IMG/VR virus record: IMGVR_UViG_3300042260_000241
Length of the DNA: 64,000 nucleotides
Strand: one strand, 5' to 3'
Source: a virus
Lineage: Duplodnaviria; Heunggongvirae; Uroviricota; Caudoviricetes
How positions within the stretch are numbered: position 1 is the first letter of the stretch; each line of letters begins with the position of its first letter. This document shows, piece after piece, positions 14,231 to 32,030 of the stretch. Under the pieces are notes generated by a model, which worked only from the letters and a program-made list of their open reading frames with translations, was not told the origin of the DNA and made no database searches. Made by a program: the position numbers and the translations under genes.

Positions 14231-14352
14231 AGTTTTAGGATACATGCAGCAAATATAACATAATTGTTATGTAGTTGGTTCGATCCCAACATTTTCCGCC
14301 ATTTTGGAAAATTAGCTCATTTGGTAGAGCAAACAAAAAGTGTATCCTGTTG
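14231..14352 (+). ncRNA. YrlA/Y-RNA-like element A (terminal covarying stem plus a permuted tRNA-like module)
   Basis: Terminal stem AGGATAC...GTATCCT. Internal order: ttgtt – variable – T-arm (gttggTTCGATCccaac) – attttcc g cc – loop – ggaaaat – D-arm (tagctcatttggtagagc) – aacaa. This is a tRNA-like domain in which the acceptor is closed by a loop and the anticodon stem is replaced by the terminal stem. Confidence 0.5.
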
Positions 14353-14452: not shown

Positions 14453-14459
14453 ATTTTAT

Positions 14460-14554: not shown

Positions 14555-14576
14555 CTTTATAATGAAAGGAAGCGAT

Positions 14577-15140: not shown

Positions 15141-15147
15141 TTAAGTT

Positions 15148-15224: not shown

Positions 15225-15257
15225 TACATATTTGGAGATACATTTGTAGGAGTAATC

Positions 15258-15818: not shown

Positions 15819-15821
15819 TAT

Positions 15822-15899
15822 GTACGGGTGGCAGAGAGGCCCAATGCAAGAGTCTGCAAAACTCTAAAACCGTCGGTTCGAATCCGACTCCGTACTCCA
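15822..15899 (+). tRNA. tRNA-Cys(GCA)
   Basis: Anticodon stem agagt/actct, loop ctGCAaa, T-arm gtcggTTCGAATccgac, CCA. Confidence 0.65.
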
Positions 15900-16067
15900 G
15901 ACTGACGATTTCGGCTTGAAAAGCCCTTATAAATCAACAACTTATGAGGCTAAAATGCATACGTATGCATCCTGAGGGTGGATACCTTCTTCAAGCTGAT
16001 TTCGTTCATCCTGATGCATTCTGGATGAAAATTGTATACTAAAGGTTACAGTGTAACAATGCATAAA

Positions 16068-16200
16068 ATAGTGTACAATAATTGCTGGTTGGTGTATAAT
16101 CTATCCATACGCTGCTAAAACAGCAAAGGAATATTGTAGATCATAGCGGTGTACAATAATTCATGGATGGTTTATAATCTATCCATACGCTCTTTAACAA
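16068..16200 (+). promoter_or_regulatory. two further copies of the tRNA-cluster promoter module
   Basis: TGTACAATAATT-N-GGTGTATAAT / GGTTTATAAT followed by ATCCATACGCTG-N-AAAACAGCAAA. The module is near-identical to the copies at 13557–13700. Confidence 0.5.
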
Positions 16201-16228
16201 ATTGATCACATATAAATTGCCGGGAGGC

Positions 16229-16317
16229 AATCACTATATGTAAGTGTACTAGAATGCGCCATGACGGTCGAGGAATTTATTCCCACCACGCAGGAAGACA
16301 TAAGTACACTTACATAT
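16229..16317 (+). ncRNA. long-stem hairpin element (family 2, copy 2)
   Basis: Perfect 15-bp inverted repeat ATATGTAAGTGTACT / AGTACACTTACATAT flanking about 52 nt. It sits immediately 5' of tRNA-Glu. Confidence 0.4.
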
Positions 16318-16321
16318 AGAT

Positions 16322-16397
16322 GCACCGTTCGTCTATCGGTTTAGGACACCAGCCTTTCACGTTGGTAAGATGGGTTCGATTCCCATACGGTGTACCA
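16322..16397 (+). tRNA. tRNA-Glu(TTC) (second copy; assignment tentative)
   Basis: Anticodon stem ccagc/gttgg, loop ctTTCac, T-arm atgggTTCGATTcccat, CCA. Confidence 0.5.
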
Positions 16398-16404
16398 GAT
16401 TTCT

Positions 16405-16479
16405 GGTCTCAAAGTGTTCATGGACGCACGCGACACTGTCACTGTCGAAGAAGGGGATCGTTACCCCTTGGGACCGCCA
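16405..16479 (+). tRNA. tRNA-Asp(GTC)
   Basis: Anticodon stem cgaca/tgtcg, loop ctGTCac, unusual T-loop ATCGTTA, CCA. Confidence 0.65.
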
Positions 16480-16485
16480 AGTTTT

Positions 16486-16560
16486 GCCGGATTAGCACAG
16501 CGGTAGTGCAATCGCCTTGTAAGCGATAGGTCGTCTGTTCGAACCAGACATCCGGCACCA
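16486..16560 (+). tRNA. tRNA-Thr(TGT)
   Basis: D-arm tagcacagcggtagtgc, anticodon stem atcgc/gcgat, loop ctTGTaa, T-arm gtctgTTCGAACcagac, CCA. Confidence 0.65.
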
Positions 16561-16688
16561 AGACACTACGCCTCGCAGCGGTGTCAATCTCAACATAGGG
16601 TTGAGCGTGTATAGTTCGGGTCTACGCCAGTAGGTCTTTTCGGTCACCACGTAGAGTGACGGCTAAAGTTCGTAATGCCACAAATTTT

Positions 16689-16762
16689 GCCCGGTTAGCT
16701 CAAAAGTAGAGCATACGACTGATAATCGTAAGACAGAGGAGCGTTACCTCTACCGGGTACCA
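16689..16762 (+). tRNA. tRNA-Ile(GAT)
   Basis: Anticodon stem tacga/tcgta, loop ctGATaa, CCA. Confidence 0.65.
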
Positions 16763-16768
16763 AAACAT

Positions 16769-16853
16769 GGAGGTGCCGCCGTAATGGTATGGCAGGAGAC
16801 TGTAAATCTTCCGACTTAGGTCACAATAGGTTCGATCCCTATCACCTCCACCA
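16769..16853 (+). tRNA. tRNA-Tyr(GTA)
   Basis: Type II. Anticodon loop ctGTAaa, long variable arm, T-arm aggTTCGATCcct, CCA. Confidence 0.65.
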
Positions 16854-16861
16854 AGTTTAAT

Positions 16862-16941
16862 GGACTTCTGGTATTAGCAGGGAAGTACGCCGTGGGATTA
16901 ATCCTTCGGAGGCGTTGGTTCAATTCCAACGAAGTCCACCA
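16862..16941 (+). tRNA. tRNA-like, anticodon undetermined (contains the GGATTAATCC palindrome; possibly Leu-type or a pseudogene)
   Basis: Good acceptor (ggacttc/gaagtcc), T-arm gttggTTCAATTccaac and CCA, but I could not find a canonical anticodon stem. Confidence 0.35.
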
Positions 16942-16981
16942 AGTTTACATTATATCGCATTTGTGGTATAATAAAGAATAT

Positions 16982-17057
16982 TCCGAAGTAGCACAGAGGT
17001 AGTTGCAGCGCACTGTTAATGCGCCTGTCGTAGGTTCGATCCCTACCTTCGGAGCCA
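16982..17057 (+). tRNA. tRNA-Asn(GTT)
   Basis: Anticodon stem gcgca/tgcgc, loop ctGTTaa, T-arm gtaggTTCGATCcctac, CCA. Confidence 0.7.
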
Positions 17058-17127
17058 AGTTTTAGAGTAGGTTCAGCAAATAAAAAGCATTCAACTTGTA
17101 ATTGAAAACGCAAAAACTACTCTGTTG
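17058..17127 (+). ncRNA. Y-RNA-like element B (reduced member)
   Basis: agtttt-AGAGTAG-gTTCAGCAAa ... aaaaa-CTACTCT-gtt, with an internal anticodon-arm-like hairpin ttcaa-cttgtaa-ttgaa. Confidence 0.45.
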
Positions 17128-17132
17128 TATTT

Positions 17133-17216
17133 GCCTAGGTGGTGGAATGGTATACACTCTGGTCTTAGAAGCCAGCGCCGCGAGGATTGAGAGTTCGAGT
17201 CTCTCCCTAGGCACCA
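17133..17216 (+). tRNA. tRNA-Leu(TAG)
   Basis: Type II. Anticodon stem ctggt/gccag, loop ctTAGaa, T-arm gagagTTCGAGTctctc, CCA. Confidence 0.7.
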
Positions 17217-17568
17217 TGTTTTGTAAGTGTCAGCAAGAGAAAGTCACGCTGGTCAACATTCTTCGAAGGTGTTGGTCAGTAGAAGGTAGCGGGTTCGATC
17301 CCCGTCCGATCGGAAGATCGGAATACAGTTGGAGTATCGTCTGGACTATTATCCCGAGTGACGTACCGAGTCCCGGCCGGCTTAATTACACGGGTGAATG
17401 GTGTCTATAACGATGGGGACACTACTTACAAATTCAATACTCGCCTTGACTGATGGCGTAGAGAAGGATAAATTGTCAGTCATCTTTTTAAAGCGTACTG
17501 CTGAAGTTGGTTCAGTTAGATAGGGAGATCCAATTGCCTATATCGTTAGTATGCTTTAAAAAGATTTT

Positions 17569-17643
17569 GGGGGCATGGCGTAATTGGGAACGCAGTAGCT
17601 TTGCAAGCTTCAGTTCGGGGTTCGATTCCCCGTGCTTCCACCA
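17569..17643 (+). tRNA. tRNA-Ala(TGC)
   Basis: Acceptor gggggca/tgcttcc, D-arm gcgtaattgggaacgc, anticodon loop ttTGCaa, T-arm cggggTTCGATTccccg, CCA. Confidence 0.6.
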
Positions 17644-17904
17644 AGAATACTAAGACAATACTCGGTACTGTGAGTAGATGGAAACCGACCCATGCGAGAC
17701 TGCGTGGGCTTCAATTACGCAGGCATTGGTAATTCTGTGCAGGTCAGATTGACGATGCGAAAGTAAGTCGGTCCAGTAGGGTCAGGAAAAGTATTGTCGG
17801 CGGAAAAAGCTGCCGGACGTCAGAAGTTAGATTCATACACATCGGTATCCATGGACCCGGTGGCAATTTGTTTCTAACGCCGTGTATACGTACAAGATTT
17901 TTAT

Positions 17905-17981
17905 GCCCCGTTAACTCAGTGGATTAGAGTACTAGGCTACGAACTTAGGAGTCGGGCGTTCGAATCGCTCACGGGGTGCCA
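17905..17981 (+). tRNA. tRNA-Arg(ACG)
   Basis: Anticodon stem ctagg/cttag, loop ctACGaa, T-loop TTCGAAT, CCA. Confidence 0.65.
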
Positions 17982-17987
17982 AACAAT

Positions 17988-18063
17988 GCCAATATAGCTC
18001 AGATGGTAGAGCAGCGGACTGAAAATTCGTGTGTCGGTGGTTCAATTCCACCTATTGGCACCA
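17988..18063 (+). tRNA. tRNA-Phe(GAA)
   Basis: D-arm tagctcagatggtagagc, anticodon loop ctGAAaa, T-arm ggtggTTCAATTccacc, CCA. Confidence 0.7.
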
Positions 18064-18067
18064 ATAT

Positions 18068-18150
18068 GCACATGTGGCGGAATTGGTATACGCGCATGGT
18101 TGAGGTCCATGTCCTTCGGGTTGAGAGTTCGAGTCTCTCCTTGTGCACCA
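18068..18150 (+). tRNA. tRNA-Leu(GAG)
   Basis: Type II. Anticodon stem catgg/ccatg, loop ttGAGgt, T-arm gagagTTCGAGTctctc, CCA. Confidence 0.6.
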
Positions 18151-18156
18151 AGTTTA

Positions 18157-18230
18157 CGCGGGTAGGGTGGTCACCACTGCAGTCTCATAAGCTCGCAGCA
18201 TCGGCGGTTCGAATCCGTCACCCGCATCCA
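18157..18230 (+). tRNA. degenerate tRNA-like with a CAT anticodon loop (ctCATaa) and a weak anticodon stem
   Basis: T-arm ggcggTTCGAATccgtc, acceptor 3' strand plus CCA, but only 3 bp in the anticodon stem. Confidence 0.3.
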
Positions 18231-18296
18231 GTTTTAGGATCCATTCAGCAATCTTAAAAATTTCACTGTTAATGAAACCAAAAGAGGATCCTGTTA
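18230..18296 (+). ncRNA. Y-RNA-like element C (reduced member)
   Basis: gtttt-AGGATCC-aTTCAGCAAt ... aaaaga-GGATCCT-gtt, with an internal hairpin tttca-ctgttaa-tgaaa. Confidence 0.45.
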
Positions 18297-18301
18297 TTTT
18301 T

Positions 18302-18376
18302 GGTGATATAGCATAGACGGATATGCAGGGCTCTCATAAGGCTCACAGGAAGGATCGTTACCTTCTATCACCACCA
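18302..18376 (+). tRNA. tRNA-Met/Ile2(CAT)
   Basis: Acceptor ggtgata/tatcacc, anticodon loop ctCATaa, T-loop ATCGTTA, CCA. Confidence 0.6.
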
Positions 18377-18391
18377 TATATAGAATATCAT

Positions 18392-18468
18392 CGGAGTGTA
18401 GCACAGCCTGGTAGTGCGCTTGCTTTGGGAGCAAGAGGTCCAAGGTTCGAATCCTTGTACTCCGACCA
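18392..18468 (+). tRNA. tRNA-Pro(TGG)
   Basis: D-arm gcacagcctggtagtgc (Pro-like), anticodon stem cttgc/gcaag, loop ttTGGga, T-arm caaggTTCGAATccttg, CCA. Confidence 0.7.
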
Positions 18469-18476
18469 AATTTAGG

Positions 18477-18749
18477 ATGAATATGATTGTTAACCCTTTG
18501 AAAAAGAATGTTCTGGTTGCAGAACGTAATCGTGAAAACACAACTGCCAGTGGAATAGTAGTACAAGGCGTTGAAGGTCTTGGTGAATCCAAGTCTGCTA
18601 AAGTTCTTGCGATTGGGCCAGACGTCACTGAAGTAAAAGTTGGTGATACTGTTTATCTCATGTGGAATAAAGCAAAGCTTGTTAAAGTCGATGGTGCACA
18701 ACGTGCTATCGTCGCTGAAGAAGACATTGTTGCTGTTTTAGAAGATTAA
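18477..18749 (+). CDS. co-chaperonin GroES-like protein (functional analogue of T4 gp31)
   Basis: MNMIVNPLKKNVLVAERNRENTTASGIVV...VKVGDTVYL...VDGAQRAIVAEEDIVAVLED follows the GroES/Cpn10 sequence pattern. Confidence 0.7.
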   Translation: MNMIVNPLKKNVLVAERNRENTTASGIVVQGVEGLGESKSAKVLAIGPDVTEVKVGDTVYLMWNKAKLVKVDGAQRAIVAEEDIVAVLED

Positions 18750-18751
18750 TT

Positions 18752-18827
18752 GCTGCTATAGCTCTAGTGGTAGAGCGCTTCCTTGGTAAGGAAGAGGTCA
18801 CTGGTTCGAATCCAGTTAGCAGCACCA
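18752..18827 (+). tRNA. tRNA-Thr(GGT)
   Basis: D-arm tagctctagtggtagagc, anticodon stem cttcc/ggaag, loop ttGGTaa, CCA. Confidence 0.7.
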
Positions 18828-18842
18828 TTCCAGGAGTTTTAT

Positions 18843-19031
18843 ATGAAAATGAGTGATGGCGGCAAGGGAAGTTCTCCTCGTCCTTATTCTGTAGATAAAG
18901 ATACATACGCATCTAATTGGGATGCTATCTTTGGTAAAAAGAAAAAAGAAGATAATACTGGTGTACAAAAAACCGAGTATTATGATATAATTTCTACTGA
19001 AGATTGCTTAACTGATAAAGACAAACAATAA
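18843..19031 (+). CDS. hypothetical protein
   Basis: A 62-aa ORF between tRNA genes. Confidence 0.35.
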   Translation: MKMSDGGKGSSPRPYSVDKDTYASNWDAIFGKKKKEDNTGVQKTEYYDIISTEDCLTDKDKQ

Positions 19032-19038
19032 AGATATT

Positions 19039-19121
19039 GCCCGAGTGGTGGAATGGTAGACACAGCAGACTTAAAATCTGCCGCCTTGTGCGTACCGGTT
19101 CGAGTCCGGTCTCGGGTACCA
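19039..19121 (+). tRNA. tRNA-Leu(TAA)
   Basis: Type II. Anticodon stem gcaga/tctgc, loop ctTAAaa, T-arm accggTTCGAGTccggt, CCA. Confidence 0.7.
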
Positions 19122-19173
19122 ATATAATTTGCATTGGTAGCACGTCGATGTATAAATAAAGATAGGAGGCACT

Positions 19174-19779
19174 ATGCATTTTATCATTTATAAGACTACT
19201 CACGTTCAATCAGGCAAATATTATATTGGGATGCATTCAACTTCTGATTTAGAAGATGGCTATCTCGGTAGTGGAAAATGGATAAAAGCTGCCGTGAAAA
19301 AGCACGGCAGAGACTCATTTGAAAGAGTAATTCTCAAAGAGCTATCATCATACGATGATATGAAGAATGAAGAAGCTAAAGTAATCAATGAAGAAGTTCT
19401 CAATGATCCGTTATGCATGAATATGATGCATGGTGGAAAAGGCGGCTGGAAAACATTGAATGATTCTGATTCTGCATATCAAAGACGAAGTGAAGCTGGT
19501 AAAAAAGCACACGAAGTTCATAAGCATTTAGTGAATAATCTTCAAAGAGGAAGTAATCAAAAGACTGTTTCTACGTTAAAAGAAAAATACGGCAATGATC
19601 ATTTTGCAAAATTAGGCAAAATGAAAAATGTAACAGATGAATACCGATCAAAATTAAGTAAAGCTCAATGCGGTATGAAAATGATAAACAATGGTAAAAT
19701 AAACACCTTTGTGAAAAAAGAAGAATTGAATGAATACTTATCTAAAGGATGGGTATTAGGAAGAATTAGATCTCAGTAA
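19174..19779 (+). CDS. GIY-YIG homing endonuclease (SegB-like, free-standing in the tRNA cluster)
   Basis: FIIYKTTHVQSGKYYIGMH ... YLGSG is a canonical GIY-YIG motif. T4 segB occupies the equivalent position in the T4 tRNA region. Confidence 0.8.
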   Translation: MHFIIYKTTHVQSGKYYIGMHSTSDLEDGYLGSGKWIKAAVKKHGRDSFERVILKELSSYDDMKNEEAKVINEEVLNDPLCMNMMHGGKGGWKTLNDSDSAYQRRSEAGKKAHEVHKHLVNNLQRGSNQKTVSTLKEKYGNDHFAKLGKMKNVTDEYRSKLSKAQCGMKMINNGKINTFVKKEELNEYLSKGWVLGRIRSQ

Positions 19780-19957
19780 GATAACAGCAGTCGTCGGGTC
19801 TCCAAAACCCTGAAGTGTTGGTGCAACTCCAGCCTGGGATGCCAAATAAAAGTTGTGTCGACGACTAATCTCGGTGCTCCCGTTCTCCCGAGTTAAAATG
19901 ACTGTTTGTGGTTCTCCCCTGACGAGATAAAGCAAAAAGTAAGACGGGGCCAAATAT

Positions 19958-20048
19958 GGAAACGTGGCAGAGTTGGTCTATTGCTCCAGCCTTGAAAACT
20001 GGCGACTCTTAATCGGGTCCGTGAGTTCGAATCTCACCGTTTCCGCCA
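19958..20048 (+). tRNA. tRNA-Ser(TGA)
   Basis: Type II. Acceptor ggaaacg/cgtttcc, anticodon loop ctTGAaa, T-arm gtgagTTCGAATctcac, CCA. Confidence 0.6.
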
Positions 20049-20054
20049 AAATTA

Positions 20055-20144
20055 CGAGGGTTGCCAGAGAGGCCTATTGGCGCATCTTGGAAAGGTGATG
20101 GTTGCGAAAGCGGCACGAGAGTTCGAATCTCTCACCCTCGGCCA
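20055..20144 (+). tRNA. type II tRNA, probably Ser(GGA) (anticodon loop irregular)
   Basis: Acceptor cgagggt/accctcg, long variable arm, T-arm gagagTTCGAATctctc, CCA. Confidence 0.4.
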
Positions 20145-20149
20145 ATTTT

Positions 20150-20229
20150 GTGTGTTTCGTATAAATGTTTAGGGCATCATTACATGAGGGTAAAACCTCC
20201 GGATGTGGGTTCGAATCCCACAACACACA
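20150..20229 (+). tRNA. atypical tRNA-like element without encoded CCA
   Basis: Perfect 7-bp acceptor (gtgtgtt/aacacac) and T-arm gtgggTTCGAATcccac, but the D and anticodon region is aberrant. Confidence 0.3.
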
Positions 20230-20231
20230 AT

Positions 20232-20319
20232 GGAAGATTAAACAGACTGGGTCTGTAACTGTTTCGAAAACAGATTGATCGCTTATGCGGTTGCAGTTCG
20301 ATTCTGCAGTCTTCCTCCA
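20232..20319 (+). tRNA. tRNA-Ser(CGA)
   Basis: Type II. Anticodon loop ttCGAaa, T-arm tgcagTTCGATTctgca, CCA. Confidence 0.55.
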
Positions 20320-20325
20320 ATAAGA

Positions 20326-21471
20326 TTAGAGAATATCAAATTCTGGATATATTGTTTTATATGATGTATTTGCAATTATATCAAATTGTTCTAAAAATTC
20401 TTTAGCACTATCCCAATTTGGGGTATCATATTCTAATAATTCTAATGCAGTTTGAATCAGAACCTGACTTCCTTCTATTTTAGAAGGATTTTTAAAGTTT
20501 TTTAATTTTTCTTTATAAATGTTTTTAACACTCTTTGGTAAATTACTAACTTGAAGAATATTGTCAAGTACTGGACTACTCATAATATGAGTAAACGCAA
20601 TACCAGTTATGCTCATTATTTCTTCTAATGTGGTTATGAGTTCTGGGATATATCCTACGTTTAAAAGACTTATAGTAGAATTTACACCATAGGAAAAATT
20701 TTTATTATTAGAAATATTATCGATGATGTTATTTAAGTCACAACCATGACGTATATAATCATTCACTATCTTATTGCCATCGATACTGAGATTTAATTGG
20801 ATCTTGCAATTTAACTCATTTAGAATAGCAATGATATTTTTATTTGGTTTAGTATAATTTGTAGAAAATGTTATTAGTCGCAATTGCGTTGATTCTTGTT
20901 TAATTAAATTAATTAAGTCTAAACAATCCGAATCTATGAGAGGTTCTCCTCCAGAAATAGTGATAGACACTACTTCTTTGAATGAACCTTTAAGCTTATC
21001 TATGTCAAAGCGATTATTTACTTCAGTAAAATTATATAGATTTTTTAAAAATATACTTTTCTTAGAAAGTTCTCCTAGTTTTGAACTAGAATATGGCGAA
21101 CACATTCTACATGCAAGATTACATGTATTTTTAAGAGATATATTAAATACTTTTGGAAAAGAGTTTGAATTTAGATCAACTGAAATGCCGTATTTAGTAA
21201 AGTCTTTATTCTTAAAAGAACGATATGAAAAAGTTGTATCAGGAACATTGCATGCTTCACAATTATGATTAATAGTATTGGAGATAATGTTTTTTCTTAA
21301 TGATTTAAACTCATCATCAGTCCATATCTTTATAAAAGATTCGACTGGACCTTCAAGTTTTTTATATTTGCAACATGGCGCAATAGTATTATTTTGAAGA
21401 TTTAGTTGAGCATGAAGCCAAGGTACTGCACATCGATTTCCATTTTCAATTAGATCATCTGTAGTTTTCAT
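20326..21471 (-). CDS. radical SAM domain protein
   Basis: CNLACRMC matches the CxxxCxxC radical SAM cluster motif and ITISGGEPLI is a SAM-binding motif. GC content is much lower than in the surrounding sequence, and the gene is on the opposite strand. Confidence 0.7.
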   Translation of the reverse strand: MKTTDDLIENGNRCAVPWLHAQLNLQNNTIAPCCKYKKLEGPVESFIKIWTDDEFKSLRKNIISNTINHNCEACNVPDTTFSYRSFKNKDFTKYGISVDLNSNSFPKVFNISLKNTCNLACRMCSPYSSSKLGELSKKSIFLKNLYNFTEVNNRFDIDKLKGSFKEVVSITISGGEPLIDSDCLDLINLIKQESTQLRLITFSTNYTKPNKNIIAILNELNCKIQLNLSIDGNKIVNDYIRHGCDLNNIIDNISNNKNFSYGVNSTISLLNVGYIPELITTLEEIMSITGIAFTHIMSSPVLDNILQVSNLPKSVKNIYKEKLKNFKNPSKIEGSQVLIQTALELLEYDTPNWDSAKEFLEQFDIIANTSYKTIYPEFDIL

Positions 21472-21520
21472 AAAATAAAAAAAAAAAAAAAATAAGTATA
21501 TAACATTATATATAGATCAT

Positions 21521-21595
21521 GCGGGCATGGTGCTAGTGGTAACACATAACTTTGCCAAAGTTAAGTTGCGGGTTCAATTCCCGCTGCCCGCTCCA
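21521..21595 (+). tRNA. tRNA-Gly(GCC)
   Basis: Anticodon stem taact/agtta, loop ttGCCaa, T-arm gcgggTTCAATTcccgc, CCA. Confidence 0.7.
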
Positions 21596-21608
21596 TTTAG
21601 GATTATGT

Positions 21609-21764
21609 ATGAACGAGTTAAATGAACACGGTGTTCCACTACATGCATGCAATGAGTATAGACATGATGAACATTGGTGGACATGGGCAAAATGGATTAC
21701 ACAAAATTGTAAAAGACTTGGTTCAGATGGACTGAACGTATATTACCAAAAGCCTGTACAATAA
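21609..21764 (+). CDS. hypothetical small protein
   Basis: A 51-aa ORF following the tRNA. Confidence 0.3.
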   Translation: MNELNEHGVPLHACNEYRHDEHWWTWAKWITQNCKRLGSDGLNVYYQKPVQ

Positions 21765-21789
21765 TTCGTGATTGTGGTATAATATAAGT

Positions 21790-22065
21790 ATGGTAAATGA
21801 TAAAGAACATGAAATTATGTCAATCACTCAGGAAGAATGTTCCGAAGTGATTCAAGCAATTAGCAAGATCAATCGATTTGGTTTTGATGGACGACATCCT
21901 GAAAAGACTTACAATAATCGTGAACATCTTGAGGAAGAAGTAGGAGACGTCTTAGCAATGATTGATCTTCTACTTGAGAATGAGATTGTGTCTTGGGCTA
22001 ATGTGAACAAGGCACGTAGAGCAAAGTTTGAGAAGCTCCGTCAATGGAGCACTATCATGGACTAA
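21790..22065 (+). CDS. MazG-like NTP pyrophosphohydrolase (small)
   Basis: EEVGDVL matches the MazG EExxE/D motif. An early promoter TATAAT lies at about 21776. Confidence 0.45.
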   Translation: MVNDKEHEIMSITQEECSEVIQAISKINRFGFDGRHPEKTYNNREHLEEEVGDVLAMIDLLLENEIVSWANVNKARRAKFEKLRQWSTIMD

Positions 22066-22070
22066 ATAAT

Positions 22071-22144
22071 GCGGGATTGGTATAGGGGTTGTGCCCTAGT
22101 CTTCCAAACTAGAGAGACCGGTTCGAGCCCGGTATCCCGCTCCA
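22071..22144 (+). tRNA. tRNA-Gly(TCC)
   Basis: Anticodon stem ctagt/actag, loop ctTCCaa, T-arm accggTTCGAGCccggt, CCA. Confidence 0.65.
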
Positions 22145-22168
22145 TTTAACTTTAACCAGGAGAAAGCA

Positions 22169-22300
22169 ATGAAACGAAAACTGATCGTCAAGCAGCGTAA
22201 CCGCTTCGTTGCTTTGGCACAATTCCGAAAAGCGGGAGTGCATCGCAAAACTAATAAAGCTTTGCGTAAATCACTCAACCAAGCTATTTTGGAAGTGTAA
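22169..22300 (+). CDS. small basic protein (possible bS21-like ribosomal protein fragment)
   Basis: A 43-aa ORF with a strong AGGAG Shine-Dalgarno sequence. FVALAQFRKAGV resembles the S21 FDVALRRFKRSCEKAGV segment. Confidence 0.3.
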   Translation: MKRKLIVKQRNRFVALAQFRKAGVHRKTNKALRKSLNQAILEV

Positions 22301-22366
22301 CTCAAAGGCTAGAGTACCCGGCTTTTAACCGGATAGTTGTGGGTTCGAGTCCCACCACTTCTACCA
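22291..22366 (+). tRNA. tRNA-Lys(TTT)
   Basis: Anticodon stem ccgg/ccgg, loop ctTTTaa, T-arm gtgggTTCGAGTcccac, CCA. Confidence 0.65.
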
Positions 22367-22510
22367 TATAGTTAAGTACATTTTGTCACTATCGTATGGG
22401 TAAGCCCATCAATCTCCCCTCAACACCGGAGTCGCGCTCGGTTCGTAGGGATCGGAATGGATTGAAATAGCTACCAGGCCTGACAACTTGGGAAATGTAC
22501 TTAACTATAT
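22367..22510 (+). ncRNA. long-stem hairpin element (family 2, copy 3)
   Basis: 17-bp inverted repeat TATAGTTAAGTACATTT / AAATGTACTTAACTATA flanking about 108 nt. It lies between the tRNA-Lys CCA and tRNA-His. Confidence 0.4.
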
Positions 22511-22587
22511 GGTGACTATAGTGTAAAGGTTCAGCACCTCGCTCTGTGAAAGCGATAGAATGGGATCGTTCCCCATTAGTTACCCCA
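22511..22587 (+). tRNA. tRNA-His(GTG)
   Basis: An extra G-1 opposite a C discriminator, anticodon stem tcgct/agcga, loop ctGTGaa, CCA. Confidence 0.7.
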
Positions 22588-22594
22588 TGAATAT

Positions 22595-22670
22595 GGATCC
22601 TTAGCTCAGCGGTACGAGCAACTCCCTTACAAGGAGAAGGTCATAGGTTCAATCCCTATAGGATCCACCA
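22595..22670 (+). tRNA. tRNA-Val(TAC)
   Basis: D-arm tagctcagcggtacgagc, anticodon loop ctTACaa, T-arm ataggTTCAATCcctat, CCA. Confidence 0.7.
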
Positions 22671-22778
22671 AGTTATAGGATAGGTTCAGCAAACCATAAC
22701 GCATGCGAATGGATCGCAATTTGACTTCTAATCAAACCTTGGGGGTTCAATTCCCTCTGCAAAACAACTATCCTGTTG
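22671..22778 (+). ncRNA. Y-RNA-like element D (tRNA-like member with T-arm)
   Basis: agttat-AGGATAG-gTTCAGCAAa ... aaaacaa-CTATCCT-gtt. Internally it has an anticodon-arm-like hairpin tttga-cttctaa-tcaaa and a T-arm gggggTTCAATTccctc. Confidence 0.5.
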
Positions 22779-22800
22779 AATACGAATACTCTACGAATTC

Positions 22801-22926
22801 GGAGATGTGATGTAATGGTAGCATAGCATAGCAAAAAACCAATTCTGTAAAGAATTGTTCCAGCATATTCTAAGCTCAACTTTGTAAAAGTTCTTGTCCG
22901 TGGTTCGAATCCCGGCATCTCCACCA
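22801..22926 (+). tRNA. tRNA-like gene with a ~50-nt internal insertion (two tgtaaa-loop hairpins)
   Basis: Perfect acceptor ggagatg/catctcc, D-arm, T-arm and CCA, but about 126 nt long. Confidence 0.35.
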
Positions 22927-22931
22927 ATTTC

Positions 22932-23006
22932 ATCTCTGTAGCTCAAAGGTAGAGCGCTGCTTTGACATAGCAGATACGGCGGATCGTTACCGTCCAGAGG
23001 TACCAT
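22932..23006 (+). tRNA. tRNA-Val(GAC)
   Basis: Anticodon stem ctgct/agcag, loop ttGACat, T-loop ATCGTTA, CCA. Confidence 0.6.
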
Positions 23007-23007
23007 G

Positions 23008-23085
23008 CGCTTGTGACGAAAACTGGTAAACGTGCTTGTCTCAAACACAAGATTTTGAGGGTTCGACTCCCTCCGAGCGCACCAG
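23008..23085 (+). tRNA. tRNA with anticodon CAA and a short variable arm (identity uncertain)
   Basis: Acceptor gcgcttg/cgagcgc, anticodon stem cttgt/acaag, loop ctCAAac, T-arm gagggTTCGACTccctc, CCA. Confidence 0.5.
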
Positions 23086-23635: not shown

Positions 23636-23668
23636 TGTACAAAAAATAAGTTTTAATTTATAATCAAG
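23636..23668 (+). promoter_or_regulatory. early promoter
   Basis: TGTACAAAAAATAAG...TTTATAAT. Confidence 0.45.
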
Positions 23669-23902
23669 AAAATGGGATGATTACAGCAACTTTAATTCTA
23701 CGAAGCTAAAGTACTGCCACTATAGGAGGACCACCGTAAGGTGTAAATTACGTGGCTAGGGAGAAAACCTGAAGTGAAAATCTGACTCCGATAATCGGAA
23801 ATATGATAGTAGTCTATCTAGTTCGGCAGGGTATAAGTGCCTGGTTAGAAAACCAAATAACGAACCGGTCATCCCGCGTTATTATTAACTCATTGGAATA
23901 TT

Positions 23903-24352
23903 ATGTCACTTACACTTAAAAATCTTGAGAGTGCACTAGCCGGTGAATCTGTGGCACATATTAAATATCGATACTTTGCCAAGATCGCTCGCGAAGAAGG
24001 CTATGAAGAAGTTGCAAAACACTTTGAACATACTGCCGATCAAGAAATTCTTCACGCATGGGGTCATCTTGAACTTCTTATTGGTAAACCTTCTACGAAG
24101 GAATGCCTTGAGAAAGCTATCGAAGGTGAAACCTATGAATTTAATTACATGTACCCAGAGTTTCATGCCGCTGCTGTAAAAGAAGGCGACATGGCTGCTG
24201 CTGGTGTAGCACTCGAACAAATCGCAGAATCGAAAGAACATGCTGAACAGTTTAAAGCTGTATTGGCAAAGGCTGAAAAGCGATTCGCTGCTCTAGCAAA
24301 AGTTGAAAAACGTCATGCTGAAGCATATCAACAAGTTTGGGAGAGTCTATAA
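23903..24352 (+). CDS. rubrerythrin-like ferritin-fold di-iron protein (N-terminal domain only)
   Basis: ExxH-type di-iron ligand spacing in a 149-aa four-helix-bundle-like sequence. Confidence 0.6.
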   Translation: MSLTLKNLESALAGESVAHIKYRYFAKIAREEGYEEVAKHFEHTADQEILHAWGHLELLIGKPSTKECLEKAIEGETYEFNYMYPEFHAAAVKEGDMAAAGVALEQIAESKEHAEQFKAVLAKAEKRFAALAKVEKRHAEAYQQVWESL

Positions 24353-24480
24353 TGGATCATGTATGTATTGTTTGTGGTCACGTCCACGATGAAGAATTAG
24401 AAGGAAAATGGGAAGAACTTCCAGATGACTTCGTCTGCCCAGAGTGCGGCGTAGGCAAAGAAGACTACGAAACTCTATAA
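24352..24480 (+). CDS. rubredoxin
   Basis: A 42-aa ORF under the track threshold. CIVCG ... CPECG matches the rubredoxin CxxCG...CPxCG motif. It has a TAATG overlap with the upstream gene. Confidence 0.75.
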   Translation: MDHVCIVCGHVHDEELEGKWEELPDDFVCPECGVGKEDYETL

Positions 24481-24622
24481 AAATATTAGGATAGGTTCAG
24501 CAACACCTCTATCGGCGTGAAAGCGCCACATAGGACTGGGCGTAGACAAGTTAAATCCTTTACGTCCTAATGAGTCTTCGAGTTCCTCATGAAAAATAAA
24601 GAAGTAGGCAACTATCCTGTTT
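24481..24622 (+). ncRNA. Y-RNA-like element E, immediately upstream of the Ro60-like gene
   Basis: attAGGATAGgTTCAGCAAc ... gcaaCTATCCTgtt terminal stem. Internal hairpins ggcg-tgaaa-gcgcc and atgag...ctcat. Confidence 0.5.
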
Positions 24623-24629
24623 ACATTAA

Positions 24630-24660
24630 TTCGTTGATATGTTATAATCTATCTATGAAT
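24630..24660 (+). promoter_or_regulatory. early promoter for the Ro60-like gene
   Basis: ACATTAATTCGTTGATATGTTATAAT. Confidence 0.45.
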
Positions 24661-24746
24661 TGAGGTTAAGTTCCGCAAATCATCGCTGATAATTGGGTCC
24701 GCCCAACATTAGCTCCATTTATTAACCTGTTGAAAGTGAAAAAATC

Positions 24747-26183
24747 ATGAATACTTTTGTTCAAGCCGTTCAGGCACAAGAAGCTCGTACCGAAAACGGT
24801 ATGAAGGCTCGTAAGTCCACTGCATCAAAGTGTGTAGACTTGTTCTTCAAGCTCGGCGCCATGCGTGGCAAGGATATCACCAAGGAATTCGTCGCAGCTT
24901 ATGTTGAAGACAAGGACTTGGCTTTGCGTATCGCTCAGCATGCCCGTGACGCACGCGGTGGTGCTGGTGAACGTAAGATCTTCCGTGATATTCTAGTTTA
25001 TCTAGAAAAGCATGATGCAGAAGCTGCTAAGGCTCTGCTTCGTAAGGTACCTGAAATCGGTCGTTGGGACGATATCTTCGTCTTTAAGACTGAAGCGATG
25101 AAGGCCGAGGCATATACTATGTTGGGTGACGCTCTTCGTGAGAAGAATGGTCTCGCAGCAAAGTGGACTCCTCGTCAAGGTCCTATTGCGGTTGAAATCC
25201 GTAAGTTCTTCGGTATGTCTCCAAAGTTCTATCGTAAGTCCTTGGTTGAAATGACTAAGGTTGTAGAATCCGCGATGTGTGCGAAGGAATGGGATACCAT
25301 CAACTTCAGTCACGTTCCTTCTGTTGCAGCTGCACGCTACAAGAAGGCCTTTAACCGTAACACTACCGAGTACGCTAAGTATGTCGCAGAGTTGGTGAAG
25401 GATCCTAAGGATCGTAGTATTGAAGTTAAGGTCAATGCTGGCGCTGTATACCCATACGACGTCATCAAGGGTTTGAATGGTTATGGCTATTCTAACTCGT
25501 TCGATAAGACCGAACTTGACCTCATCACTAAGCAATGGGAGGCTTTGCCCAACTATGTCGGTGATGCAAATGTCCTAGCATTGGTTGACGTTTCTGGTTC
25601 TATGGCTTGTCCAGTAGGAGGTTTTGGTTCCGGTGCTAAGACTACTTGTATGGACGTAGCGGTTTCGCTTGGTTTGTATGTTGCAGAAAAGAACAAGGGT
25701 AAGTTCAAGGATACTTTCTTGACTTTCTCAGAATCTCCTGAACTATTGCACCTTAAGGGTAACGTTGTTCAGAAGTCTCAACAAATGGTTAAGTCTACTT
25801 GGGGTATGTCCACTAACCTACACAAGGCTATGGAAAAGATCTTGAAGACTGCTAAGGACGGAAACGTTCCTCAGTCGGAAATGCCTGAGATGTTGTTGAT
25901 CATGTCTGACATGCAATTCAACGCCTGTGCTAAGTTCGATCACTCTGCTATGCAGATGATTGAAAGCAAGTACAAGGCAGCTGGATACGAAATGCCAAAG
26001 ATCGTATTTTGGAACTTGAACGCTAAGGACAACGTGCCAGTGTCGTTCGATAAGTCCGGAGTTGCTCTGGTAGCTGGATTCTCTCCTTCTGTATTGAAGG
26101 CAGTCCTTGCGGCTGATATGGAGCAATTCACTCCTGAAGCAATTATGCGTAAGGCAGTGTGTATCCCACGCTACGACTATTAA
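24747..26183 (+). CDS. Ro60/Rsr-like protein (TROVE-like helical domain plus C-terminal vWA domain)
   Basis: LALVDVSGSM is a MIDAS DxSxS motif, and the C-terminal vWA region resembles Ro60 (ALDVSASM...FSDEM...FTDNE pattern). The 478-aa length and domain order match Ro60. Confidence 0.6.
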   Translation: MNTFVQAVQAQEARTENGMKARKSTASKCVDLFFKLGAMRGKDITKEFVAAYVEDKDLALRIAQHARDARGGAGERKIFRDILVYLEKHDAEAAKALLRKVPEIGRWDDIFVFKTEAMKAEAYTMLGDALREKNGLAAKWTPRQGPIAVEIRKFFGMSPKFYRKSLVEMTKVVESAMCAKEWDTINFSHVPSVAAARYKKAFNRNTTEYAKYVAELVKDPKDRSIEVKVNAGAVYPYDVIKGLNGYGYSNSFDKTELDLITKQWEALPNYVGDANVLALVDVSGSMACPVGGFGSGAKTTCMDVAVSLGLYVAEKNKGKFKDTFLTFSESPELLHLKGNVVQKSQQMVKSTWGMSTNLHKAMEKILKTAKDGNVPQSEMPEMLLIMSDMQFNACAKFDHSAMQMIESKYKAAGYEMPKIVFWNLNAKDNVPVSFDKSGVALVAGFSPSVLKAVLAADMEQFTPEAIMRKAVCIPRYDY

Positions 26184-26199
26184 GCTTCGGCTTAATATA

Positions 26200-26226
26200 A
26201 CAAAGGCCCCGAAAGGGGCCTTTGTA
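26200..26226. terminator. bidirectional rho-independent terminator
   Basis: aaaggcccc-gaaa-ggggccttt lies between convergent genes. Confidence 0.6.
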
Positions 26227-29603: not shown

Positions 29604-30581
29604 ATGAAAACAGGCATCCTCATCGGGCGCTTTCAGCCCTTTCACGTCGGTCACTTACATTCTGTCGGAGTGGCAGCATCCCAAGTAGACAAGCTCTACA
29701 TTCTCGTTGGTTCGGCAAATGCATGTCGATCAATCAAAAACCCTTGGACTTTTGCAGAACGAAAAGATATGATTCGTTCAAAACTTTGGTCTGCACACAT
29801 CACTAATGTTGAGATAGTACCTCTCAATGATTATCCCTATAACGATACGCAATGGATCGCTGATGTTCGAGCAACTGCTGAACATTATGACATGGGAAAG
29901 CCTACACTCTTTGGTCACATGAAGGAAGGTAATGACTATCTTAAATGGTTTCCTGATTGGAAGTACCGCGATATTGAAACTCCTCATCCGGTGAATGCCA
30001 CATCTATTCGTCAACGTATGTACGCGACTGACGATTCAACAATGCCCCGCACAGTACGTGATGATTTTGCATATTATGAAAAAGAAAAGAAACTTTTTGC
30101 AAATTACCCATTTCCAGAAACACTTAACTTCAACTGTGGAGACGCTGTCGTCGAATGCCAAGGACACGTCCTTCTTATCCGTCGGCTCCGTGCGCCGGGG
30201 GCAGGAGCTTGGGCTCTACCTGGTGGGTTTAAAAACGGGAACGAGTCCTTTTTGGACTGCGCAGTACGAGAACTACAAGAAGAAACAAATATTCGAGTCC
30301 CTGAGAAAGTCCTTCGAGGATCAATCGTAAAGACTGAATTGTTTGACTCTCCAAAGCGTTCATTTGGAATTCCACGCAATACGCTTGCCGTGTACTTCCG
30401 TATCAATCCTGATCCAGATGGTGGTCTACCTCGTGCAAATGGCGCAGATGATGCAGCTGAATGCAAATGGTTTCCTCTCACCGATGTGCTTAATTCAATG
30501 GAATTGTATGACGACCATGCGCACATCATCTCCAAGGTCACTGGTGTAATGCCCATGCCGGCATTTGTCGGTGTACGATAA
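29604..30581 (+). CDS. natV: bifunctional NMN adenylyltransferase / Nudix hydrolase (NatV/NadM-Nudix)
   Basis: GRFQPFHVGH matches the (H/T)xGH nucleotidyltransferase motif. A C-terminal Nudix box GGFKNGNESFLDCAVRELQEETNI is present. Confidence 0.8.
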   Translation: MKTGILIGRFQPFHVGHLHSVGVAASQVDKLYILVGSANACRSIKNPWTFAERKDMIRSKLWSAHITNVEIVPLNDYPYNDTQWIADVRATAEHYDMGKPTLFGHMKEGNDYLKWFPDWKYRDIETPHPVNATSIRQRMYATDDSTMPRTVRDDFAYYEKEKKLFANYPFPETLNFNCGDAVVECQGHVLLIRRLRAPGAGAWALPGGFKNGNESFLDCAVRELQEETNIRVPEKVLRGSIVKTELFDSPKRSFGIPRNTLAVYFRINPDPDGGLPRANGADDAAECKWFPLTDVLNSMELYDDHAHIISKVTGVMPMPAFVGVR

Positions 30582-30629: not shown

Positions 30630-32030
30630 ATGAAACTCGCTAAATCAATCATTCTTAACACCGATAGTTACAAAGTCTCGATGTTCAAACAGTATCCGAT
30701 TGGCACTACTGGCGTCTACAGCTACATTGAATCTCGTGGTGGTCGTTACGACGAAACTGTATTCTTCGGTCTGCAAGCATTCATTAAGGAGTATCTACTT
30801 GAACCAATCACACAAGCCGACATTGACTTGGCGGATGAGATTCTTTCTGCACACGGGGAACCTTTCAACAGGGTCGGCTGGGAATATATCCTGCAGACGC
30901 ACGGTGGTTTCCTCCCAGTGGTTATTCGTGCTGTACCTGAAGGCACTGTGGTCCCTGTCAAAAACGTTCTGGCAACAATCGAGAACACTGACCCAGAATG
31001 TTTCTGGTTGACAACCTATCTGGAAACTGCTCTGCTTCGTGCAGTGTGGTATCCCACAACAGTTGCTACTCAAAGCAAATATATTAAGAACATTATCAAA
31101 GACTTTTTGGAGCGTACTGGTGACCCTACTCTCATTGATTTTAAGTTGCACGACTTTGGTGCTCGCGGTGTTTCTAGTATGGAGTCTGCTGGAATCGGCG
31201 GCGCCGCTCATCTCGTTAACTTTATGGGAACGGATACTATTACGGGGATTCTTTACGCTCGTGAGTATTACAACGCTGGCATTGCTGGTTTTAGTATTCC
31301 TGCCGCCGAACACAGCACCATCACAAGTTGGGGTCGTGAAAACGAGGTAAAAGCATATGCAAACATGGTTCAACAATTCGCCAAACCTGGTTCCATTGTT
31401 GCTGTTGTTAGCGACAGCTATGATGTTTATAATGCCGCTTCCAAACTTTGGGGGGAAGAACTTCGTCAACAAGTTATTGATAGTGGTGCAACTATCGTTA
31501 TTCGCCCTGACAGTGGTGATCCTGTGGAAGTAAACCGTCGCCTAGTTGAGATCCTAGGAGAAAAGTTTGGCTACACTACAAACGCAAAGGGATTCAAGGT
31601 CCTAAACAATGTTCGTCTTATTCAAGGTGATGGTGTTAACGAACTTACTATTCGTTCTATCCTTGGCTCTTTCATGGCAATGGGTTGGTCTGCTGACAAT
31701 ATTGCTTTTGGTATGGGTGGAGCTCTACTTCAACAAGTTGACCGCGACACTCAAAAGTTTGCAATGAAGTGTAGTTCTATGCAAATGAATGGCTTGTGGA
31801 ACGATGTGCAGAAAGACCCTATCACCGATCCTGGCAAGAAATCTAAAGCAGGTCGTGTCACTCTTTGGAAGAGTGGTGGCGAATGGATTAGTGCAGTCGA
31901 TCGACCAACCGGCTGGTATGACCGTGCGATCGGTGAAGTCGAAGAAGTCCTTGAAGAAGTCTATCGTGATGGTAAACTAATCACCGAATACACATTCGAA
32001 GACGTACGTAAAGCTTCAAACGCTATCTGA
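30630..32030 (+). CDS. nadV: nicotinamide phosphoribosyltransferase (NadV)
   Basis: A 466-aa NAPRTase-family protein. Its N-terminus MKLAKSIILNTDSYKVSM is typical of NadV/Nampt. It lies adjacent to natV, as in KVP40-like phages. Confidence 0.8.
   Translation: MKLAKSIILNTDSYKVSMFKQYPIGTTGVYSYIESRGGRYDETVFFGLQAFIKEYLLEPITQADIDLADEILSAHGEPFNRVGWEYILQTHGGFLPVVIRAVPEGTVVPVKNVLATIENTDPECFWLTTYLETALLRAVWYPTTVATQSKYIKNIIKDFLERTGDPTLIDFKLHDFGARGVSSMESAGIGGAAHLVNFMGTDTITGILYAREYYNAGIAGFSIPAAEHSTITSWGRENEVKAYANMVQQFAKPGSIVAVVSDSYDVYNAASKLWGEELRQQVIDSGATIVIRPDSGDPVEVNRRLVEILGEKFGYTTNAKGFKVLNNVRLIQGDGVNELTIRSILGSFMAMGWSADNIAFGMGGALLQQVDRDTQKFAMKCSSMQMNGLWNDVQKDPITDPGKKSKAGRVTLWKSGGEWISAVDRPTGWYDRAIGEVEEVLEEVYRDGKLITEYTFEDVRKASNAI

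Follow-up and report, generated by a model that had tools for sequence, protein, structure and literature searches.

A divergent Ro60-like protein and its candidate partner RNAs, a putative family of modular handle RNAs, in a tailed phage and its relatives

The window analyzed here is a 64,000-nucleotide (nt) stretch of a virus of the class Caudoviricetes (IMG/VR record IMGVR_UViG_3300042260_000241), and coordinates given without a locus name refer to it. On its + strand lie a gene for a 478-amino-acid (aa) Ro60-like protein (24747..26183, starting with ATG) and, ending 128 nt upstream of that ATG, a structured element of 131 nt (24488..24618). A preliminary description of this locus, made from the sequence alone, had suggested a phage-encoded Ro60/Rsr-like protein with an adjacent Y-RNA-like element in a stress-related setting. 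The underlying observation, an open reading frame (ORF) preceded by a structured element, was confirmed. Its interpretation held in part: the protein has a Ro60-like fold and the element, a conserved, structured RNA on the same strand beside the gene, is plausibly its RNA partner, but the element does not belong to YrlA or Y_RNA and the stress context is incidental. Moreover, the element is not a lone Y RNA but one of seven modular copies in the window that share a closing helix and an adjacent single-stranded motif, here called the handle.

The protein consists of a DUF2828 helical-repeat ring and a DUF7788 von Willebrand factor A (vWA) domain with a MIDAS motif (metal-ion-dependent adhesion site). 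Pfam searches matched DUF2828 (PF11443) at residues 165-267 (E 3e-22; 79.5 bits versus a cut-off of 29) and DUF7788 (PF25043) at residues 275-458 (E 1e-47; 162.5 bits versus 27.1), with VWA_2 matching only weakly (E 0.11), and phrog_850, labelled "RNA-binding protein" in PHROGs, matched the full length (residues 1-477; E 2e-140). The motif LALVDVSGSM, previously pointed out as a MIDAS, is present at residues 277-286, and the five MIDAS residues D281, S283, S285, T356, and D388 are invariant in a 103-sequence protein alignment assembled from two homology searches. When an AlphaFold2 model (mean predicted local distance difference test 87.2, predicted template modeling [TM] score 0.86) was compared with the PDB using Foldseek, the top 10 matches were all Ro60, over the full length (E 3e-10 to 9e-8; TM score up to 0.66; alignments of 513-574 columns), with only vWA domains ranking after them. 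The Ro60 structures matched were those of Xenopus (2i91/1yvr), human (9nep/9nf8/9nfa), the Thermus phage phiLo (9kop/9l5y), and Deinococcus radiodurans Rsr (2nvo). The arrangement that characterizes Ro60, a helical-repeat ring closed by a C-terminal vWA domain, is thus seen in the model, and the toroid expected in the preliminary description is there. The Ro60 relationship is visible only by structure comparison, since Pfam gave no match to TROVE (PF05731) at E≤1, NCBIfam gave none, and neither phmmer nor profile searches of PDB sequences with the window protein found a Ro60. Hence, the proposed Ro60 architecture stands at the level of the fold but not at that of the TROVE sequence family. Judging from the model, the ORF probably encodes a divergent Ro60-type protein of the DUF2828/DUF7788 family, with a closed helical-repeat ring capped by a vWA/MIDAS domain.

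At this level the reading is not new, as a Ro60-like annotation already exists. An Ochrobactrum phage record cites HHpred similarity to 2NVO, mycobacteriophage homologues are named "Ro-like RNA binding protein," and some giant-virus homologues carry the UniRef label "TROVE domain-containing protein," which is a label only. About 710 of 50,697 phage records encode a DUF2828 protein, and a giant-virus query returned 5,508 clusters at 50% identity. Eukaryotic members were found in a liverwort (on Mb-scale contigs), in Mortierella and Podila fungi, and in two amoebozoans, alongside mimivirus-like sequences; literature matches to DUF2828 were mostly plant papers. No cultured phage is close to the window at the DNA level, and the best cultured protein match is from Synechococcus phage BUCT-ZZ01 (47.5% identity). 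A 1,045-aa protein from a 99-kb JGI metagenome contig (P0457), named "2'-5' RNA ligase" by its source, carries a DUF2828-type Ro-like domain at its C-terminal side (residues 652-992), a fusion whose composition points to RNA repair or processing.

The element upstream of the gene opens and closes with the two strands of a helix termed P1 (24488-24494 paired with 24612-24618; AGGAUAG/CUAUCCU). The 5' strand of P1 is followed by single-stranded GUUCAGCAA (24495-24503), and then come three hairpins, H1 (24514-24527) with a GAAA tetraloop, H2 (24538-24567) with 9 bp, 2 of them G-U, and H3 (24570-24590; AUGAG-UCUUCGAGUUC-CUCAU) with the T-loop-like loop UUCGAGU, and finally an A-rich 3' strand (24591-24611). 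A covarying AGGATAG/CTATCCT stem and a GNRA-type hairpin had been noted within an element of ~140 nt; both are present, within the true bounds given above. In related viral contigs, nhmmer recovered the element over its whole length, immediately preceding the gene, with P1 in the forms AGAATAG/CTATTCT, AGGTTAG/CTAACCT, AGGGTAG/CTACCCT, and AGGATCG/CGATCCT. In a 16-sequence alignment, 95.7% of the cells of P1 and H3 are paired and 7 pairs show changes on both sides, compared with 36-51% paired when the partner strand was slid by 1-3 columns, and the covariation score was reached by none of 500 shuffles. By eye, H2 differs from that of a close relative (locus L017) by one G-C to A-U change and by the replacement of both G-U pairs with Watson-Crick pairs. 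The evidence for the structure is comparative, because the single-sequence folding energy is unremarkable (z = -1.64). On this comparative evidence, we regard 24488-24618 as a real structured RNA with covarying helices. A blastn search of the 50,697 phage records with the element gave chance matches only.

The feature common to all seven copies is a 7-bp closing helix (5' A-G..., 3' ...C-U) followed on the 5' side by single-stranded N-U-N-C-A-G-C-A-A, with an A-rich 3' strand, UUUU at positions -4 to -1, and a G-U-U tail after the copy. The copies all lie on the + strand between 14.2 and 24.7 kb; elsewhere on this strand there are none, and the - strand has one chance-level match. Two of them are near neighbors of the element, which is referred to as a class A copy. 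A 202-nt class C copy (23674..23875; GGGAUGA-UUACAGCAA...UCAUCCC) follows directly after a promoter-like site (23636-23664), and its homologues in related loci, of 200-275 nt, immediately precede class A copies. Downstream of the element, a further copy (24663..24728; AGGUUAA-GUUCCGCAA...UUAACCU) ends 18 nt before the ATG and follows a promoter-like site, which places it in the 5' untranslated region (UTR) of the predicted Ro-like mRNA. None of these three, the element and its two neighbors, gave an Rfam match even at permissive thresholds.

The remaining four copies lie within the tRNA cluster of the window, which comprises 32 tRNA genes (13737-23084), all on the + strand and all with an encoded CCA. 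Here the copies fill tRNA slots, in the order CCA-AGUUUU-[copy]-GUUGUAUUU-[tRNA]. The inserts enclosed by the handle differ from copy to copy. In the 112-nt copy (14237..14348), the insert begins with a perfect T-arm, continues with a closed hairpin, and ends with a D-arm of canonical form, which is the tRNA-like layout of YrlA. The 98-nt copy (22677..22774) contains a near-complete tRNA body without an acceptor stem, composed of a D-like arm, an anticodon arm with a CU-UCU-AA loop, and a T-arm, and the Rfam tRNA model scores 31.9 bits on 22701-22761. The 60-nt copy between tRNA-Asn and tRNA-Leu (17064..17123) and the 57-nt copy between tRNA-Leu and tRNA-Met (18236..18292) each carry a single hairpin with a 5-bp stem and a 7-nt loop, CUUGUAA and CUGUUAA, respectively. 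Two gaps of ~80 nt ahead of handle copies (14150-14230 and 18155-18229) end in ...(A/U)CCA-AGUUUU, the signature found after every tRNA of the cluster; neither ARAGORN nor Rfam called a tRNA there, and these gaps may hold further, unrecognized tRNA-like RNAs ending in CCA. A radical S-adenosylmethionine protein gene (20326-21471) also lies within the cluster, on the - strand, opposite to the tRNAs.

Across the retrieved loci, 498 distinct copies were collected, with inserts of ~25 to 260 nt and a commonest size class of 40-79 nt. Conservation is high at A1 (84%), U9 (85%), A16 (87%), C(-2) (97%), and U(-1) (85%); G2, C11, C14, and A15 reach 100% by construction, because the collecting pattern fixed G2, C11, G13, C14, and A15. 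The flanking G(+1) (91%) and U(+2) (77%) are independent of that pattern. All four Watson-Crick pair types occur at three positions of P1. Because the copies had been picked by their stems, selection-independent tests were run. With nothing but the single-stranded motif as the anchor, a 7-bp closing stem was present at 249 of 731 sites on the same strand (34%), versus 8% in the controls (53/705 on the opposite strand and 59/726 in a shifted register). With an IMG/VR pattern that left two stem positions free, these were complementary in 61 of 80 loci, compared with ~14% expected. Furthermore, a covariance model (CM), R1, built from 54 short copies, recovered two untrained window copies, 14237-14348 (33.4 bits, E 8e-5) and 22677-22774 (30.0 bits, E 4e-4), and gave 59 bits for the copy at 17064-17123. 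Its scores are strongly strand dependent, with 58.3 bits (+) versus 9.7 bits (-) for the copy at 18236-18292 and 25.2 bits (+) versus 10.9 bits (-) for the 5' UTR copy, which was also found by a regular expression. Taken together, these sequence comparisons indicate an undescribed, modular, multicopy RNA family with a constant handle and a variable insert.

Inverted repeats of this kind might act as DNA or purely in cis, as elements resembling miniature inverted-repeat transposable elements or repetitive extragenic palindromes, as homing or recombination sites, or as transcription insulators, instead of being stable RNAs. P1 is almost purely Watson-Crick, with G-U making up only 53 of 3,486 pairs (1.5%), which is unusual for an RNA helix, and it could therefore equally be a DNA palindrome; in addition, the copies are numerous and dispersed and form a tandem array of 76-nt units in a giant virus. 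However, the repeats are strictly asymmetric, with CAGCAA and G(+1) on one strand only, always that of the tRNAs and the gene, and the 58- versus 10-bit CM scores on the two strands reflect the same asymmetry. G-U pairs are found in internal hairpins, including H2 of the element, the inserts are recognizable as RNA modules (T-arm, D-arm, anticodon arm), and no target-site duplications or transposase genes were noticed, although no systematic search for either was made. We therefore consider a role at the DNA level very improbable.

The short inserts drew attention to anticodon loops. Hairpins with a 5-bp stem and a 7-nt loop number 27, in 26 of 53 short copies, and their loops follow the pattern C-U-NNN-A-A, with C1 in 20, U2 in 25, and A6 and A7 in 24 each. 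A strict anticodon-loop mimicry is kept only as a lead, because many of these copies are mutually homologous and AUUGGA, a loop of another type, is also recurrent, both in KVP40 and in the phage family of the window and, with less clarity, in P100. By eye, the class A copies of some relatives have an extra hairpin with a true T-loop sequence. A recurrent internal CUGGAGCC...GGCUUUGAAGG was seen in the class A copies of loci L004, L006, L012, L025, L051, L052, L065, and L076; by eye it resembles a kink-turn, with a C-stem, a UUU bulge, and tandem G-A pairs. Two long copies (L078 1537-1783 and L080 475-728) contain an insert resembling a permuted tRNA, in the order T-arm and acceptor 3' strand with CCA, long hairpin, and acceptor 5' strand and D-arm.

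The arrangement has parallels with Ro60/Rsr and its YrlA or Yrn1 RNAs, including the Ro60-Yrl ribonucleoproteins (RNPs) of Thermus phage phiLo and of mycobacteriophages. Ro60 binds Y RNA on the outside of its ring and the ends of misfolded RNAs in the hole at its center. In both systems, the RNAs are encoded next to the protein and in the same orientation, their two ends pair in a terminal helix, the 5' side has a conserved single-stranded motif, a variable module mimics tRNA, and several RNA paralogues are encoded per genome. YrlA genes share the strand of the Ro gene, lie no more than about 4 kb from it, and combine a tRNA-like layout with a GNCGAA Ro-binding motif (PMC4201824), and for one canonical phage Ro60 the binding partners are two Y-like RNAs encoded upstream and the host PNPase (PMC12135203). 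The element, 128 nt from its gene, lies well within this distance. Of the tRNA-like layout it has only the T-loop-like hairpin H3 (GAG-UCUUCGAGUUC-CUC), and the copy at 14237-14348 has the full set. On the other hand, the window protein has no detectable TROVE sequence similarity, the handle motif is N-U-N-CAGCAA rather than GNCGAA or GGUCCGA, the handle RNAs remain below the Rfam thresholds for YrlA and Y_RNA, the inserts are far more varied, from 40 to 275 nt and with many a single hairpin, and copies are interspersed among tRNA genes, with one in the 5' UTR of the gene.

It could nevertheless be argued that the element is a canonical YrlA-family Y RNA too divergent for the Rfam model and that there is no new class. 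Its location, no more than 130 nt from a Ro60-fold gene and on that gene's strand, its terminal stem joining the ends, and its T-loop-like hairpin fit this view, and YrlA RNAs are known beside phage Ro60 genes (PMC4201824; PMC12135203). Furthermore, the sister copy of the element in the tRNA cluster gave a YrlA match (14246-14359; 34.2 bits, E 2.4e-6 in a 136-nt search), which is below the gathering score of 69, and in the YrlA alignment of the copy at 14237-14348, CAGCAA is aligned with the GNCGAA Ro-binding motif. However, in a 1.2-kb search neither Y_RNA (RF00019) nor YrlA (RF02553) matched 24488-24618 even at E≤10, contrary to the Y-RNA assignment suggested earlier, and at E≤1 no Rfam family was detected on the copies of Listeria phage P100, Mycobacterium phage Loadrie, and Escherichia coli phage skuden. 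The covarying end stem of the element is accompanied by CAGCAA and not by GNCGAA(N)G, CGAA, or GGUCCGA, most copies (40-80 nt) lack any T/D module, and the protein belongs to a different sequence family, DUF2828 and not PF05731. A canonical YrlA identity thus seems to us quite unlikely.

The handle accompanies the Ro-like gene well beyond the window. Of 71 loci from the phage family of the window, 65 carry one or more copies in the 1 kb preceding the gene, and in 48 of the 71 (68%) a copy ends 13-25 nt before the start codon and therefore lies in the 5' UTR. The handle recurs beside Ro-like homologues of only 28-47% identity. Phage skuden, which is FelixO1-like, has four copies in the adjacent tRNA cluster (L082 4061-4127, 4228-4285, 4623-4690, and 4710-4834), P100 has three tandem copies just upstream of gp165, Loadrie has three tandem copies with UGG-type stems just downstream of gene 54, and BUCT-ZZ01 has two copies just upstream of the gene, with no tRNAs annotated in 25 kb. 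Copies were also seen near the Ro-like gene of KVP40 (L086 7998-8055, 9353-9565, and 11595-11841) and beside that of Vibrio phage F86. In a giant-virus metagenome-assembled genome (MAG; L123), at least three head-to-tail 76-nt units (13802-14014, +; AGGAUAC-AUCCAGCAA...GUAUCCU-GUAU) run to the contig end and adjoin a DUF2828 gene (12106-13638, -). In the KVP40 record, the tRNA cluster close to the Ro-like gene also includes five features named "tRNA-Pseudo" and measuring 75-124 nt, with the coordinates 3507-3753, 5304-5419, 7201-7282, and 9065-9139. In P100 (L087), a subthreshold ROOL RNA match (6762-7313, +; 86 bits, gathering score 99.1, E 8e-16) separates the tRNA cluster from the three copies that precede gp165; judged by Rfam, this record has its tRNAs annotated on the wrong strand.

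The tRNA regions of T4 and T5 served as negative controls, and neither a Ro-like gene nor a handle copy was found in either. Phage tRNA clusters are known to contain stable RNAs (T4 rnaC and rnaD; T5 RNA I-IV and RNA1-3) that are, like the handle RNAs, small, tRNA-like, and located between tRNA genes; however, they lack the stem and CAGCAA, and no DUF2828 gene accompanies them. T4 rnaC and rnaD, without the handle, and the T5 tRNA/stable-RNA region, with neither handle nor gene, were accordingly rejected as relatives.

From the fold of the protein, the structured RNA family, and the co-location of the two, we infer protein-RNA binding, RNA processing, autoregulation, and a function in infection. 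Our preferred explanation, which we consider probable, is that the Ro60-type DUF2828 protein and the multicopy handle/insert RNAs form a Y-RNA-like RNP with a new handle, which is autoregulated and acts in tRNA-related counter-defense or RNA surveillance. The handle RNAs would be cut out of the tRNA-cluster and early transcripts, and the Ro-like protein would bind the handle, by analogy with Ro60, whose site on Y RNAs comprises the terminal helix and the 5'-strand motif. The inserts could then offer tRNA-like surfaces to host or phage tRNA-acting enzymes as a decoy, tether, or sensor, and the 5' UTR copy would allow the protein to repress its own translation. These steps are proposed because the arrangement parallels that of Ro60 and Y RNAs. 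The likely role during infection would be counter-defense or RNA surveillance.

Several points weigh against this proposal. Expression and processing of the RNAs and their binding by the protein are so far predictions, the protein is recognized neither by the TROVE model nor in searches of PDB sequences, the element is recognized by neither YrlA nor Y_RNA, and the scarcity of G-U pairs in P1 is unusual for an RNA helix. No copy was seen in 7.2 kb around the gene of the Ochrobactrum phage homologue, and for only 14 of 61 independently retrieved copies was the gene within the short retrieved stretch. Distances from the gene reach 10 kb for many copies, which occupy tRNA slots and have tRNA-like flanks (U at -1, 7-bp stem); such copies could therefore be tied to tRNA processing and not to the protein. 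In the main rival explanation, the handle would serve tRNA-cluster transcripts as a cassette for processing or stability: its 7-bp acceptor-like stem, with U at -1 and the conserved G-U-U on the 3' side, would be a substrate of RNase P, RNase E, or RNase Z, and tRNA-like RNAs would be released or protected independently of the Ro-like protein, with the gene being a frequent co-resident. The occupancy of tRNA slots, the conserved flanks (UUUU at -4 to -1; G at +1 in 91%), the tRNA-derived inserts, and the majority of independently retrieved copies without the gene in the retrieved stretch speak for it. It is weakened, however, by the absence of the handle from the T4 and T5 tRNA clusters, which have no Ro-like gene; by loci in which handles adjoin the gene although tRNAs are not close by (BUCT-ZZ01, Loadrie, and the giant-virus MAG); and by the 5' UTR of the gene itself, which contains a copy in 68% of loci. 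In addition, inspection of the annotation tables by eye showed the Ro-like gene to be the only neighbor common to all inspected phage loci. In light of this, we regard a processing cassette independent of the protein as unlikely, if the most serious of the alternatives.

If the handle RNAs are partners of the Ro-like protein, work on the Felixounavirus Bas63 is relevant. Its Ro60-like gp130 is encoded directly upstream of tRNA genes and counters the Ppl defense system (PMC11482910), and the authors of that study speculated that some of the neighboring "tRNAs" might be Y RNAs (PMC11482910, preprint). FelixO1-type proteins are ~40% identical to the window protein, and in both cases the gene adjoins a tRNA cluster and a Ro60-like structure has been noted; unlike in the present work, no partner RNAs were identified there (PMC11482910). 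The handle copies of the FelixO1-like tRNA cluster of skuden are thus candidate gp130 partner RNAs. A counter-defense role is suggested by the action of gp130 against Ppl, by the 2'-5' RNA ligase fusion, by NAD-salvage genes nearby, and by the placement of ROT/TROVE proteins among phage RNA-repair systems by Aravind and colleagues (PMC7824862).

Regarding the surroundings of the gene in the window, rubrerythrin (23903-24352) and rubredoxin (24352-24480) genes lie upstream, both confirmed by Pfam. The oxidative or UV stress role once proposed on account of these neighbors found no backing, as only 3 of 80 related loci have them together with the Ro-like gene, in each case on its other side. A predicted early promoter between element and gene was substantiated as a pattern match only: a sigma-70-like site (24620-24648, +; TTTACA-17-TATAAT with an extended -10 TG) matched 11 of 12 consensus positions in a consensus scan. 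A G+C-rich hairpin, ACAAAGGCCCC-GAAA-GGGGCCUUUGU (26200-26225), read from the sequence between the convergent genes 3' of the Ro-like gene, is likely a bidirectional terminator; Rfam matches to it are chance level only, and a simple terminator scan made no call there. An NAD+ salvage pair begins 3.4 kb downstream of the Ro-like gene, consisting of a NadM-type nicotinamide mononucleotide adenylyltransferase-Nudix fusion (29604-30581, +) followed by Nampt (30630-32030, +), and a similar pair is found near the Ro-like genes of BUCT-ZZ01 (L085 21979-24749) and Loadrie (L088 23981-26325). A permuted, two-piece type transfer-messenger RNA (tmRNA) gene with the tag peptide ANDEVYALAA is located at 62667-63076 (+), where Rfam beta_tmRNA scores 161 bits and tmRNA_permuted scores 146 bits.

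The handle also resembles a eukaryotic RNA family. Dicty_Class_I_RNA (RF01414) was the best non-tRNA Rfam family for all five short phage copies tested, with full-length alignments on the correct strand, but the scores of 14.8-20.1 bits (E 0.45-7; 14.8 bits for the copy at 17064-17123, where it was the best Rfam family and not significant) do not reach the gathering score of 41.5, and on sequence grounds the link is a resemblance and not membership. Class I RNAs are ~60 nt long with 32-41% G+C, have a 6-bp terminal stem kept by compensatory changes, start with AAG and end with CUGU, and carry, next to the stem's 5' strand, the unstructured 11-nt motif CCUUACAGCAA with near-invariant U3, C6, C9, A10, and A11 (PMC7919456). 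Their remainder is variable, they are encoded by many genes, and no counterpart was found outside Dictyostelia (Kjellin et al. 2021, PMC7919456). The handle family shares this format: both are A/U rich, with a 6- to 7-bp terminal stem showing compensatory changes, a start of (A)A-G, an end of C-U-G-U, and, adjoining the 5' strand of the stem, a CCUUACAGCAA-type motif with near-invariant U, C, C, A, and A. Nucleotide 11 is the first of CAGCAA in either family, the remaining sequence varies, and both are encoded by multicopy gene families. In length, the 131-nt element is outside the Class I range of 42-65 nt, while the window copies of 57, 60, and 66 nt are in or near it. The two families differ in that the spacing between stem and CAGCAA is off by one nucleotide, in the Dictyostelium upstream sequence element (DUSE) promoter and eukaryotic host of the Class I RNAs, and in that their only proven direct binder is the RNA recognition motif protein Rnp1A/CIBP. 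No named Dictyostelium protein was among the viral, plant, fungal, and other amoebozoan homologues returned by homology and representative searches. An Arabidopsis candidate discarded by Kjellin et al. has the full format (GUUUUC-AUUACAGCAA...GAAAAC-UG; CM score 40; PMC7919456 supplement).

The DUF2828 family itself ranges over phages, giant viruses, plants, Mortierellaceae fungi, and Amoebozoa, with at least 5,500 clusters at 50% identity. It is conceivable, and we put this forward tentatively as something possible more than probable, that the stem and CAGCAA handle is the recognition platform of the whole DUF2828 family, that Class I RNAs are eukaryotic members of the same RNP and thus DUF2828-bound Y-RNA analogues, and that viruses and eukaryotes have exchanged the module. 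On this view, the RNAs of phages would be adaptors of modular build, with one handle and interchangeable tRNA-like baits, directed against tRNA-targeting host defenses.

In summary, while the Ro60-like annotation of the protein was already known, the RNA family delineated here by sequence comparison is new, and the system appears to belong with the Ro/Y RNPs, with a credible path to something broader. The DUF2828 protein, so far labelled only "RNA-binding" or "Ro-like," would gain concrete partner RNAs, and candidates for these are also present in the culturable model phages FelixO1/Bas63, KVP40, and P100, where the handle RNAs could explain how the Bas63 protein escapes the Ppl defense. Ro/Y-type RNPs would then reach well beyond the TROVE sequence family, combining a constant handle with exchangeable tRNA-like modules. 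Class I RNAs have been known since 2004, were thought to be lineage specific, and are needed for normal development; if the wider proposal is true, a DUF2828 partner would be expected for them.

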